From positions 138,880,001 to 138,944,000 of the forward strand of contig OZ024741.1 of the NCBI GenBank assembly GCA_964016885.1: a stretch of DNA of 64,000 bases. Direction: 5' to 3'. Source of the stretch: Eledone cirrhosa (taxonomy: Eukaryota). Below the pieces are notes generated by a model, which searched no databases, was not told where the DNA came from, and saw nothing but the letters and a program-made list of their open reading frames with translations. How positions within the stretch are numbered: position 1 is the first letter of the stretch; every line of letters begins with the position of its first letter. Of this stretch, positions 41,755-47,495 are shown in pieces. Position numbers and translations under genes: made by a program.

Positions 41755-44505
41755 ATAACTTTGAATAACTTTGAAATGTTTCGGCCAGTATTGGCCCAGG
41801 CAATGTCTAGCTTAATAGTAGCACGTGGCGAATTCTTTCAATTGAGGATTTGGGCACCATGGCCCATTCGAGAAGGGAATTACTGTTTGCGGAGACATAT
41901 CCGGGTGTGGGTGGTTTGTCCCGGATTACTTGGAGGAATTTGTCCAAAGACTTCTTGAATTGTGGTCAGTTTCAATTTTGACGTGTCCTGGTGTGATGTT
42001 GAATAGAGAAGGGCCAATTGAGGTGAAATAATTGTGCCGTATTGTTGTGATGAGTTGCGATTTAGATTTTTGTTTGGGACGGATAGCACGGGGCCCAAGT
42101 CTTGGGTGTATTTTGAAGGTGGTGCCAACATCATTTGGGCAGTGCTGATGAAACATTTTCCACATAATGCAGATAATATAACGCTCACGGCGACGTTGGA
42201 TTGAGTAAAGTTTCAGCTATTCTAGTCGACCCCAGTAGTCAAGGACTGACATGCCATCTATCTTTTCGTGATTGCCCTTTGGGGAGCTTCAAGTTTGATC
42301 ATACTTTGTTTCGTGCGGGGAGACCACAGTGGACAACAGTATTCAAGGTGTGGTCGGGCAAAAGTGGAGGATAGAAGGATAATGGTTTGGGAATCTCTCG
42401 ACTGGAAGGTTCTGAGGATCCAGGAACACATTCTGCGGGCCATGTCAACTTTGCTGCTTATATGCCTGGCCCAGCTTATGTTGCTGTCCACTGTTACTCC
42501 CAAGTCTCTGATGTTGTTAGATGCCACGAGAGTTTCACCGGAGGGAAGGGAGTACGGGAGTTTCAGAGCATCCTCTTTTCCAAAGTGGTTCAGTTCGAAT
42601 TTGTCTTCGTTCAGTAACACGTTGTTCTTTTCGGCCCATTGAGTAACAGCCAGTAGGTCTGACTGAAGGCTTATCCGGTCATCCACGCCATTGATGACCT
42701 TTTGGAGATTGGAATCATCAGCGAAAATTCTAATGTTGCTGTGTTTGATGATGTCAGTGATGTCATTAATATAGATGATGAAGAGAAGTGGGCCCAACAC
42801 AGTGCCATGTGGGACCCCACTACTGACTTGGGCTGGGCTGGATTTGACTCCTTCGACTACAATATGTTGGGTTCTGTTTGACAGGAAGCTCTTGATCCAC
42901 TGCAGCAGCTTTCCAGTGACTCCAATATTGGACAGTTTTTTCAGTCGAATGTTGTGATCAACCCTGTCAGAGGCCTTGCTGAAATCAAGATAGATAACAT
43001 CAGTGTTGGAACCCTCTCCCAAGGCTCTCAAAATATCATCAAAGTGATGCAGTAGCTGCGTCAGGCAATCCCTTCCATTACAGAATCCATGCTGGTTGGA
43101 GTTCAGCATATTGTTACTCTCAAGGAAGTGAGTCATAGCGATCTCACCACTCTCTCAAATACCTTAATGATATGAGAGGTGAGTGAGATTCGACGGTAAT
43201 TCACGGCAAGGGATTTGTTTCCTTTTTTGAAAACTGGGACAACAGACTGGGATAGAATGTTTTCTGGCACATATCCAGCATCCAGTGAGTTCCACCACAG
43301 ATTGGCAAGAGGAGATGCAAGTTGGTGTTGACACGTCTTCAAGGCACAAGCAGGGAACCACTCGGGACCTACTGCTGAATTATGCTTGATTTCCTTTATT
43401 GCCGCTAAGACATCATGGGCGCCGAACGTTATGTCCGATAAAGTGTAATGGGGAGTAACATCGCCGATACAGCCCAGATCGGCCATATCAGGATTGCTGA
43501 AAACAGAGCAGTATTGTTTCTGCAGTATCTCACCCATGGTTTTAGCATTGTCTTGAAGAGTGCCATTTTCATCAATTAGTGGGCCAACAGTAGAGCCAGT
43601 GATTTTGTGTTTTTTTGCAAATGAAAAGAACACTTTGGGATTGAGTTTGATCTTCTCAATTGCCCAGGCCTCTTCAGCTCTTCTCTGATTGTTGATGATA
43701 GACATCATATTGTCTTGGAGGTTATGTTTTTTAATCTCTAGTGATGAATGGCAGTCAAGTTGATGTGGTGCTGTTGACAGTATTTCAGCTTGTTGATTTT
43801 TTTGTTAGTTCTCTTAATTTTTCTGATGAGCGTTTTTCTATTTCTAGGTATTCTGCTCTTAGATTTGTTCATAGTTCTTAATGGGGTGTATTTTGCACAT
43901 ATGTTTGTAACAGGGTCCACAAATGTCTACCAGGATTTTTTGATGTTAGTGGGCGTGAAGGACCAGTCGACATGTGCAAGATCATGACTGATCGCTTCCC
44001 AATTTGCATTGTGGAAATCCATAGCGTCAAACGAATGGACAGGAGAGATGACATTGGGTTTGTATATTGGACGGTGGAATCTCAGATCACAGAGAACCAT
44101 GTCATTATCAGAGAGTAGAGTTTTCTCCACTGCAATACTGTGGATAGTGTCAGTGTGATTGCTGAAAATTAAGTCTAGGACGTTTTTGTGGCACCTCGTT
44201 GGTTCGAGCACCAGTTGGGTCAGGGAGAAATCATCCATGAAGTCAAGAAGCGATTCCACTGCTTCTCTGTGAGAGGTTGAGGCAGAAGAACCCTGGTGGC
44301 AGGCTGTTTGTGGACCAGTCAACTACGGGGAGGTTGAAGCCCCCCATCATTAAGATGCTGTCAGGGTGACACTCTTGGATGAAACACTTTATGCTGTTGA
44401 GGAATTCCTTGAAGCATCGTAGAGGCGTTTGGGGTGGCCTATAGAGCCCAACTGCTATTAGGTTGTTGGTTTGACTGAATACAGTGACTGCTTCGCAGTA
44501 TCCAT
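41755..44505 (-). mobile_element. CR1/L2/Jockey-group LINE ORF2 remnant (APE + RT), frameshifted
   Basis: APE end (PTR..NVLDLIFSN..SDNDMV); RT motifs NYRRISLTS, QHGF, YLDFSKASDRVDH, SGVPHGTVLGPLLF, FADD, HLEYCCPLWSP. Confidence 0.9.
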
Positions 44506-44534
44506 TAGTAAATATTAGTATATATATACATTAG

Positions 44535-44602
<68 letters not shown>

Positions 44603-44644
44603 CACATATATATGTGTGTGTGTGCATGTCTGTGTGTACATAAA

Positions 44645-44839
<195 letters not shown>

Positions 44840-44854
44840 ATATATATATATGTT

Positions 44855-44887
<33 letters not shown>

Positions 44888-44888
44888 G

Positions 44889-44922
<34 letters not shown>

Positions 44923-44934
44923 TATATACATATA

Positions 44935-44986
<52 letters not shown>

Positions 44987-44994
44987 CACACATA

Positions 44995-45106
<112 letters not shown>

Positions 45107-45115
45107 GATATATAC

Positions 45116-45194
<79 letters not shown>

Positions 45195-45396
45195 GAGAGA
45201 GAGAGAGATAATTTAATATATCAACTAACACAGGCGCACAGATGCACGTCCATGCCAGCAAATACACAGGTTATGTCATAGTACCTAGGTGGTTCAATGC
45301 AGGAGGGTGCAGACACAATAATATAAAAGACGTAAGATAAGAAAATATTTTTTAAAGAATTTTTAAAAATTTGTTTACTTACTTACTTAAATTTTC

Positions 45397-45478
45397 ACTC
45401 CAACTAATTTGTTTCTGCAATGGGATAAAGACAGTTACGTAATCCAACTGTCGAGAATTCATTGCGTCATCAGGGAGT
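45397..45478 (-). ncRNA. Hammerhead ribozyme motif, copy 1
   Basis: actcc-CTGATGA-cgcaatg..gacagtt..aactgtc..cattgca-GAAAC-aaatta-GTT-ggagt. Confidence 0.8.
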
Positions 45479-45949
45479 CTATTCTCAGCTGAGTCTCCAG
45501 GCAATGCGCGGACACTGGCGGCTCATATAAAAATAATAATAATTCGGTAGAAAGAACAGCTGGCGAGGACTGGATTCCATGTACTGAAATTCTCACTGCT
45601 TCTAGTCAAATGGCCGATTCTAAAGAATCAATCACGTGACACAGAGGCTAGTTAGAAGGAATGGGATGGTAAGATGACTGACGCCTACTAACACCCCAAC
45701 AAAATTTGGAAGTGGTTTTGGCAGGTTTGCTCGACAAATCAGTGATTTGGAGATAAATATAGATAATTTAATATATCAACTAACATAGGCGCACAGATGC
45801 ACGTCCATGCCAGCAAATACACAGGTTATGTCATAGTACCTAGGTGGTTCAATGCAGGAGGGTGCAGAACAATAATATAAAAGACGTAAGATGAGAAAAT
45901 ATTTTTTAAAGAATTAAAATTTTTTTTTTACTTTCTTACTTAAATTTTC

Positions 45950-46031
45950 ACTCCAACTAATTAGTTTCTGCAATGGGATAAAGAGAGTTACGTAATCCAA
46001 CTGTCGAGAATTCATTGCGTCATCAGGGAGT
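45950..46031 (-). ncRNA. Hammerhead ribozyme motif, copy 2
   Basis: As copy 1, with a fully palindromic stem III region aactaattagtt. Confidence 0.8.
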
Positions 46032-46175
46032 CTATTCTCAGCTGAGTCTCCAGGCAATGTGCGGACATTGGCGGCTCATATAAAAATAATAATAATTCGG
46101 TAGAAAGAACAGCTGGCGAGGACTGGATTCCATGTACTGAAATTCTCACTGCTATATATATATATATATATATAT

Positions 46176-46892
46176 ATTAGAATTGGAGCTCTGAAATATC
46201 AATATATATATGGTTGTATATATAATGTATTTTGCAATACACTTTATGCTTAATTAAAAGCATTTTGAAGACCGTAAGCTATTGTTTTAAAGTAGTGACA
46301 AATTCACTTACTTTGATCTCAGCAAACAGGGGAGATAAACCGACAAGTCTTGTTTCGCTTTGGTTGAAGCTTATCAAGGCCAACTACCCCTCCTGTCTAC
46401 CGAGATCACTGATGTTATATTCTTATAGAAATCTAGTAAATAATCAGGAGCTGATTATGCAGAGCGGTTGTTGGTCAGGCAGAAATTAAAAATTAGAATT
46501 GGAGCTCTGAAATAGCAATATATATATGGATGTATATATAATGTATTTTGCAATACACTTTATGCTTAATTAAAAGCATTTTGAAGACCGTAAGCTATTG
46601 TTTTAAAGTAGTGACAAATTCACTTACTTTGATCTCAGCAAACGCTCTGCATAATCAGCTCCTGATTATTTACTAGATTTCTATAAGAATATAACATCAG
46701 TGATCTCGGTAGACAGGAGGGGTAGTTGGCCTTGATAAGCTTCAACCAACGCCAAACAAGACTTGTCGGCTTATCTCCCCTGTTTGCTGAGATCAAAGTA
46801 AGTGAATTTGTCACTACTTTAAAACAATAGCTTACGGTCTTCAAAATGCTTTTAATTAAGCGTAAAGTGTATTGCAAAATATATTATATATA
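46176..46892. mobile_element. 316-bp unit x1.5 followed by an inverted copy; degenerate HHR
   Basis: attagaattggagctc at 46176 and 46492; 46643-46892 is inverted; - strand ggcc-TTGATAA-gcttcaaccaaagc-GAAAC-aagactt-GTC-ggtt at 46338-46381. Confidence 0.8.
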
Positions 46893-46935
46893 CATATATA
46901 TATATATATATATACATATATTTATGTACACACAG

Positions 46936-46972
<37 letters not shown>

Positions 46973-47495
46973 TATATACCTATATGTATTGCATTTATCG
47001 ATATTTATAGACATTCTGTATTATCTTTGACGGAAGTATATGCTTATTTCAGTCATTTTAGTACTATTCTATTGCCATTCTAAATATTCCTGATAATCTT
47101 TCCTGTCACAGAGCCGGGATTGATTACTTTGCTATGTTTACATCATAGCAGATTTGATGACAGATAAATGTCGTTTAAAACAGTCAATTTTTTGTAATTT
47201 TCTTAGTTTGATTTCTTTCCTCTCTGCATTGTGCCTTACGTTAGCGATATCAGTGAAGTACTACCGGTATTAAAGTAAATGCAATTGATTTAGCGGTCTT
47301 CGGGTCACGGTTGTACGGTTTTGAGTTCAATTCAATAACCGTTTTGCACATTGTGTCCTTACGTCTTTACGTATATTTAACTTTGGTGCAGTCCATTTGG
47401 AAATAAAACATTAATTGCAACATTAACTGAAAGGACTAGCCTTTTCACAAAAGTAACTGCGAGATGTTCAACCTCTTATATTTTGATGTACGATA

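Follow-up and report, generated by a model that had tools for sequence, protein, structure and literature searches.

The window, a 64,000-nt stretch of the Eledone cirrhosa contig OZ024741.1, carries on its minus strand a single-armed insertion in which two type I hammerhead motifs delimit a tandemly repeated unit (Table 1). That this insert is a non-coding 1.7-mer had been proposed in a sequence-only reading of the same DNA and is borne out here: the cut-to-cut period is 553 nt, identity between the overlapping parts is 95-96% (96% over 397 nt where 45761-46153 aligns with the left end of the insert), and the longest ATG-initiated ORFs of the looped monomer span 33 aa in the sense and 27 aa in the antisense orientation. 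A scan of both window strands likewise recovered the claimed pair of same-strand hammerheads, with cores at 46026 and 45473 and, in each, a 5-bp stem I (ACUCC/GGAGU), the CUGAUGA and GAAA segments, and a long stem II in which 6 proximal base pairs are followed by an internal loop and a second hairpin. Stem III ends in GUU, with U16.1-U17 ending at 45955 and 45402, and the cleavage positions proposed earlier are exact as predicted sites, with one 553-nt unit between them. In both motifs, stem II is closed at its base by a non-canonical C·A. Folded as a circle, the window monomer has a z-score of -3.6, and two other family units reach -5.2 and -6.4. Rfam returned no match at the gathering threshold in the whole window and, over 45150-47000, no hammerhead match on either of the two 553-nt-unit motifs at E≤10.

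Table 1. Features of the 553-nt-unit insertion and its immediate flanks (window coordinates)
Feature	Position	Strand	Remarks
Single-armed insertion, 1.7 units	45206..46153	-	5'-truncated at unit position 355 (46153); 3' end at site B (45206), +194 from cut
Cut-to-cut monomer, 553 nt, 38% GC	45402..45954	-	
Upstream type I hammerhead	45950..46031	-	Core 46026-46020; predicted cut 45955/45954; stem III palindrome intact
Downstream type I hammerhead	45397..45478	-	Predicted cut 45402/45401; palindrome broken at 45410
Site A (+80, about 45875), internal in window copy	45870..45880	-	UAUA-like; second fixed 3' end of arms in the family
114-nt 'tail' between sites A and B	45761..45870	-	Conserved hairpins 45870-45847 and 45821-45772; internal site B 45761
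Conserved E-box-like motif	45628..45640	-	Missing from upstream partial unit of window copy
(CT)n run directly after site B	45193..45205	-	
(TA)n target microsatellite, about 670 bp, 3' side	44519..45190	.	Sits in decayed LINE
(TA)12, 5' side	46154..46177	.	Common to insert and neighbouring insertion of another hammerhead repeat family

The label of a clean candidate does not survive, given private changes at 45410 and 45985 and the presence of GUU and C·A throughout the family. The first substitution breaks the stem III palindrome of the left ribozyme, is seen in 1 of 236 family junctions and lowers the predicted stability of the stem III duplex from -9.0 to -4.4 kcal/mol, so that the palindromic stem III ascribed to both motifs holds for the right copy and not for the left; the second disrupts a pair in the distal stem II hairpin of the right ribozyme.

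The insert is flanked by a decayed LINE and another hammerhead repeat, with no PLE ORF among its neighbours. The LINE (42258-44530, minus strand) retains reverse transcriptase (RT) and endonuclease remnants and ends at the (TA)n tract that hosts the insert. On the other side, a two-armed repeat with a 316-nt unit occupies 46176-46913; its minus-strand hammerhead (core at 46377, predicted cut after GUC at 46342) has a U3-A8 core variant and gives a weak Rfam HH9 match (E 0.0019), the only hammerhead match over 45150-47000 at E≤10, and the copy in its plus-strand arm is mutated. This repeat has 219 exact genomic matches and forms an array of more than 20 units at G000:C1:293.63-293.64 Mb. Elsewhere in the window lie four PLE-type minimal hammerheads with palindromic stem III, belonging to two sequence families (11032, 25033 and 39753 on the plus strand, 32659 on the minus strand), as well as two weaker minimal candidates (11617, plus; 2246, minus).

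The sequence-only reading had named the existence of further genomic copies as a check on its proposal, and these prove numerous: the 3.0-Gb genome contains 1,942 exact matches to a 20-nt core motif and 0 to its reversed control, so the family is not a product of chance, and a 17-nt motif of the 3' half has 13,041 matches, again against 0 for the reversed control. Copies are spread over many contigs and reach 99% identity. We analysed 134 insertions, of which 58 represent all loci with the first 100 core-motif matches on one contig, C1, a set unselected for length in which the motif is required, and 76 were chosen as best hits to three units; additional samples comprise 40 loci from a broader motif and 20 from an A-site motif. 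Overlapping loci were merged to one per insertion, arms cut by a locus edge were dropped, as were two that belong to older relatives next to L054 and L058, and 118 low-complexity positions were masked in distance, haplotype and variant comparisons. Full units of the family measure 533-583 nt, those of the broader sample 521-554 nt, and the repeat spans the whole unit. With a type I hammerhead in each tandem unit, no coding capacity and many dispersed copies, the assignment to the retrozyme class is supported; a plant-type LTR retrozyme, with type III hammerheads in LTRs, a unique middle and a 4-bp target duplication, is ruled out by the type I motif, the whole-unit repeat and the (TA)n flanks.

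Complete hammerhead motifs number 217 in 94 loci, and their 5' half is unchanged in 200. In a larger count of 371 motifs, which demanded an intact core and palindrome and is thus no test of those letters, GUU is present in 370 and the C·A in 369, and the C after A9, the A before G12 and the UU at the cut are almost invariant. Stem II varies by paired changes, with CG (319), UA (24), GC (16) and AU (10) at its second pair and UA (346) or GC (22) at its fifth. Furthermore, on 18 diverse units the named structure scores higher for covariation than all 500 shuffles, which ignore relatedness, and all slid controls; double-sided changes affect stem II and the hairpin that precedes site B, compensatory pairs are present in stems II and I, and compensatory changes in the second tail hairpin (45821-45772 in the window copy). 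Since stems I and II covary and the named structure stands above its controls, the fold is maintained under selection, and the proposed design for dimeric cleavage through a short palindromic stem III finds support across the family. GUU is a poor cleavage triplet, and together with the C·A it predicts weak activity, so that the family's ribozyme is likely a slow cutter. In the available text of earlier studies, PLE hammerheads also cleave weakly, even as dimers (PMC4209133, PMC6765202), and eight of nine Xenopus retrozyme dimers gave no cleavage in vitro (10.64898/2026.07.22.740005).

Outside the ribozyme, 142 of 152 full units and most diverged relatives share a conserved motif that we take to be E-box-like. 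Because the repeats of PLEs carry promoters that drive the next copy, as described in the accessible part of one report (PMC6765202), this motif may serve as a candidate internal promoter element. Parts of the unit occur in four sequencing runs whose kind is not recorded and which are stored as contigs, and these are uninformative on expression; no RNA run was found among the sequencing runs that hold unit sequence. As the left ribozyme of the window copy is mutated and its upstream partial unit lacks the candidate promoter, the copy is probably a weak or dead source of new circles, and could yield a monomer only via read-through, then with a weakened dimer. The window locus is ordinary and partly decayed, and its value lies in the family.

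Family-wide, the 3' ends of the arms are confined to two sites, A and B, about 80 and 194 nt after the cut, which account for 188 of 199 arms in the 134 loci and for 88 of 94 arms in the 58 unselected ones. The 5' ends are scattered instead, with 111 distinct positions among 149 arms, and the permuted endpoints that the earlier reading expected are therefore found at the 5' side and not at the 3' side. Two-armed insertions make up 36 of the 58 unselected loci. Among 67 complete two-armed loci, 58 combine A with B, 57 of them head to head, and 9 have an unclassified end; none pairs A with A or B with B, against about half expected if arm ends were independent. As for the target, 127 of 149 arm 3' flanks passed the TA-richness cut, and exact junctions between site A and (TA)n number 5,312 in contrast to 3 for the control. 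Relatives with 521-554-nt units end at the same two sequence motifs. The (TA)n flanks mask any target-site duplications, and the UAUA-like letters of site A might base-pair with a (TA)n target once it is nicked. Of 76 typed B ends, 23 run into CT or ATCT repeats, as opposed to 0 of 94 typed A ends; these repeats reflect either a stutter of the RT as it initiates or priming on (AG)n nearby.

Where two arms meet, 71 junctions could be measured, of which 46 show 0-5 nt of microhomology, one shows 8 nt and 24 contain gaps. The lengths of paired arms are uncorrelated (rho -0.05), 14 of 56 pairs are incompatible with fold-back copying (16 expected), and none of 56 B arms stops at site A; from these three observations we infer that the two arms are separate reverse transcripts. 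A self-primed, fold-back origin of the second arm is rejected by the arm-length and pairing data, and L1-type twin priming on one linear RNA by the arm-pairing analysis. Between 6 and 60 nt downstream of the cut, 5' ends are more frequent than expected (24 versus 11), an excess that may stem from a U/A-rich tract or could represent trimmed run-off from cut linear RNA. A short palindrome in the loop of distal stem II (unit positions 495-515) also coincides with several 5' ends or lies close to them, and position 512 recurs beside (TA)n. Two loci hold foreign sequence between their arms: about 420 nt of unrelated sequence, possibly a captured RNA, in L097:3174-3594, and a LINE-like insert that forms the long upstream stretch of L298.

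These ends point to a PLE. None of 154 loci (94 family, 40 relative and 20 A-site loci) has an ORF joined to the unit at a constant junction; an attachment of all copies to a PLE ORF, which the sequence-only reading had regarded as fatal to its proposal, is thus not seen there, and an autonomous PLE or a pseudo-LTR (pLTR) fragment is disfavoured by the lack of a joined RT and GIY-YIG ORF in these loci. Nor did 30 plus 30 PLE loci, examined together with 1.5 kb of flank and drawn from thousands of candidates, include an autonomous PLE sharing unit sequence. The genome is rich in GIY-YIG hits (10,595 candidates, 150 scored), and 30 GIY-YIG loci were rejected as helpers, having only low-complexity matches and one independent insertion. 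At one locus (L078:1360-3707) an A arm stands head to head with the 5'-truncated ORF of a young PLE, without (TA)n, in a possible co-insertion that makes this PLE a possible helper candidate; its family has 40 copies scored at about 99%, among 1,595 candidates, and shows only one 25-nt match to the unit in 30 loci. Two insertions (L044 and L061) that abut the 3' end of another PLE are best read as insertions into its (TA)n tail. The PLE next to L061 has RT-like and GIY-YIG-like motifs, the same two-end geometry and a tail of about 40 nt. This element, which we take to be Neptune-like, is represented at L061:4400-7100 and L314:1400-2970 and includes a Cys-rich linker before GIY-YIG as well as CACGTG- and CCAAT-like motifs; its two fixed ends lie about 40 nt apart in (TA)n and faintly resemble sites A and B, a likeness that may be due to chance in AT-rich sequence.

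As for the template, the sequence-only reading had argued that ends lying away from the cut betray reverse transcription around a circle. That argument fails, because a linear multimer would leave ends in just such places: Penelope RT initiates internally and, as far as the accessible part of the report goes, used uncut RNA in vitro (PMC11167929), and the position of the ends is accordingly non-discriminating. Haplotype uniformity and read-through at the cut site favour the circle more than end positions do. Unit divergence amounts to 0.84% within an arm, 0.94% across arms and 4.6% between loci; at 70 informative sites 3,688 of 3,782 cells agree within their locus, and many haplotypes exist. 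We counted 44 locus-specific variants common to all covering units, 19 of them across both arms, along with 265 single-unit variants that are strand-symmetric, as expected for later mutation. Recurrent single-unit variants keep their position between loci in 7 of 40 pairs, against 6.2 expected. The uniform haplotypes, the shared locus variants and the lack of positional inheritance together suggest that each generation passes through one unit. In the unselected set, furthermore, copying crosses the cut 121 times and stops within 5 nt of it three times, and 79 of 88 arms run across the cut into the previous unit. None of 236 family junctions over the cut has gained or lost a base. The passes and the intact junctions indicate that the template is continuous, either a circle or an uncut multimer.

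Some arrays also grew as DNA, and a pure star-like descent of all arrays is rejected. Among 25 loci with at least three full units, 17 have no variant limited to some units and five have two or more variants shared by some units only, indicative of block duplication; two of these five belong to a single array that comprises at least 28 units and has a higher-order repeat of 6 units. This array (L230 and L231, G000:C4:291.98-292.00 Mb) has the appearance of a retrozyme turning into a satellite. Within-arm distance climbs with separation (0.61, 0.79 and 1.14%). Of the big array's variants, eight diagnostic ones occur in no other locus and four others in one to three loci each, in a partial census, which makes the array unlike a master. 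One clear chimera (L057:3735-4615) has a young haplotype over the first approximately 390 nt copied and an older one beyond; the switch, mapped by inspection near unit position 355 and thus away from the cut, represents either a template switch or a conversion. Finally, no A-to-G excess marking an RNA stage is seen, either among single-unit variants (A>G 24 versus T>C 19, p 0.12) or among shared ones (A>G 6 versus T>C 10); at site 377 several haplotypes carry either A or G, with no mixture inside any of 68 loci, a pattern that by itself is no proof of editing.

Taken alone, PLE-type mobilisation of the family is very likely in our judgement. With moderate confidence we further propose that this non-coding hammerhead family is a non-autonomous PLE passenger copied from an RNA circle of about 553 nt. 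An array of at least two units would be transcribed, perhaps from the E-box-like motif; two hammerheads, paired via their 10-nt stem III palindromes, would cleave after GUU, probably at a slow rate or assisted by a protein, and the monomer would be ligated into a circle. A PLE RT-endonuclease acting in trans, probably as a dimer, would then cut both (TA)n strands and prime at site A and at site B, each RT running round the template and dropping off at random. The two cDNAs would join head to head, or one would be lost, giving single-armed copies such as that at 45206-46153, and a minority of long arrays would later have grown by DNA duplication. Against the circle weigh the weak predicted core, the DNA-level growth, the 5'-end excess, the L057 chimera and the missing A-to-G signal.

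More tentatively, and at somewhat less than even chances, the family may be a record of rolling-circle retrotransposition in which a dimeric Penelope enzyme bound to one circle of about 553 nt primes both ends of the (TA)n break at sites 114 nt apart. The two RTs would pass each other's start and the sealed cut by strand displacement, the hammerhead would have been weakened (GUU, C·A, dimer-only) to let circles survive, and the CT and ATCT repeats at site B would be a telomerase-like initiation stutter.

The alternative that survives best, which we nonetheless consider unlikely, takes as template a linear multimer that is transcribed from homogeneous source arrays and stays uncut; the hammerhead would cut rarely or have another job, the sources would be renewed by local DNA duplication, and two-site insertion by a PLE would proceed unchanged. 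Intact junctions and read-through fit it equally well, locally amplified arrays exist, the core looks weak (GUU, C·A), and the anole PLE in vitro, in the available part of its description, used mainly uncut RNA and could dispense with the hammerhead (PMC11167929). It requires, however, a long homogeneous master for each of the many haplotypes, and is at odds with unit variants devoid of positional inheritance, with a big array whose diagnostic variants are absent or rare at other loci, and with the covariation of stems I and II, which argues that the fold is maintained.

Linear cut monomers, with the RT jumping from the 5' end to the 3' end of the same or another molecule, could account for the chimeric locus and for the excess of 5' ends 6-60 nt from the cut; we nevertheless hold them improbable as templates, since no base is added or missing at 236 junctions, only three stops at the cut accompany 121 passes, the switch in the chimera lies near unit position 355 rather than at the cut, and intermolecular jumps would mix haplotypes more often. 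The least probable account makes the units pLTR fragments of an autonomous PLE or a plain satellite, with arrays arising only by DNA duplication after single insertions: it draws on the PLE-type ends and hammerhead, some DNA-level duplication and the match of Xenopus retrozymes to pLTRs in the accessible text of 10.64898/2026.07.22.740005, and is contradicted by the 154 loci in which no ORF is joined to the unit, a cross-arm distance close to that within arms, the 17 of 25 long arrays without partly shared variants and the 79 of 88 arms that cross the cut into the previous unit.

Circle-templated reverse transcription by PLEs has been proposed since 2014, according to the available portions of PMC4209133 and PMC7229834, which do not demonstrate it, and the copying of ribozyme-made circles into tandem DNA now becomes testable through a family that offers concrete coordinates: two start sites, a strict one-of-each pairing and many young single-template haplotypes. 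In the mainly open-access literature we found no account of cephalopod retrozymes or of strict two-site arm pairing in retrozyme arrays; Repbase, Dfam or the supplement of PMC8557442 may hold the family.

As far as sequence can tell, the family has every feature of animal non-LTR retrozymes. Those of coral, mussel, axolotl and newt (satellite 2), as presented in the accessible parts of Cervera and de la Pena 2020 (PMC7229834) and of a vertebrate survey (10.64898/2026.07.22.740005), are similarly non-coding tandem units with GC below 45% and one type I hammerhead each, arranged as dimers to multimers, and they too co-exist with PLEs (PMC7229834). At 521-583 nt the unit exceeds the 170-400 nt of tested invertebrate retrozymes and falls within the 51-972 bp range of the survey (same two sources, in part). 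Cleavage and circles were demonstrated in those systems, according to the available text, whereas in the 553-nt family they are predicted; conversely, the accessible portions of these accounts (PMC7229834, 10.64898/2026.07.22.740005) do not describe the fixed 3' ends, arm pairing and (TA)n targeting that characterise the family.

The insertions resemble those of EN+ PLEs (Penelope/Poseidon, Neptune, Naiad), which in the consulted sections of PMC3846280, PMC8557442 and PMC11167929 likewise display 5' truncation, partial tandems, an adjacent inverted copy and a tail at one end, as well as 5' junction microhomology, targets that are AT-rich or (TA)n, and two RT starts that lie internally, downstream of the hammerhead cut. 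Such insertions are described there as an inverted 5'-truncated copy with a 30-40-bp tail at one end (PMC3846280, PMC8557442), and the in vitro work, as far as available, reports both target strands being cut and extended from two internal RT starts (PMC11167929). Unlike EN+ PLEs in these sources, the family has no ORF and no parent PLE was found, its hairpin tail is about 114 nt long instead of 30-40 bp, and several whole units can make up an arm; both of its start sites are UAUA-like, whereas the anole PLE starts at RNA sites non-homologous to the target (PMC11167929, in part). Chlamydomonas MRC1-type PLEs are similarly non-autonomous and multicopy head-to-tail elements with PLE features; in the available text of PMC8557442, their 3' ends usually resemble those of an autonomous family and hammerheads are missing from most Chlamys elements, in contrast to a family with no partner found and a conserved hammerhead. 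The ribozyme is closest in build to the PLE minimal hammerheads of Cervera and de la Pena 2014 (PMC4209133, in its accessible part), which share the stem I of 4-5 bp, the long stem II, the extra base after A9 with a conserved G-C next to it and the palindromic stem III suited to dimers. To this plan the family adds an A before G12 (or C·A), a 10-nt palindrome, a second stem II hairpin and a near-invariant GUU, and thereby presents a natural hammerhead with an unusual yet strongly conserved core.
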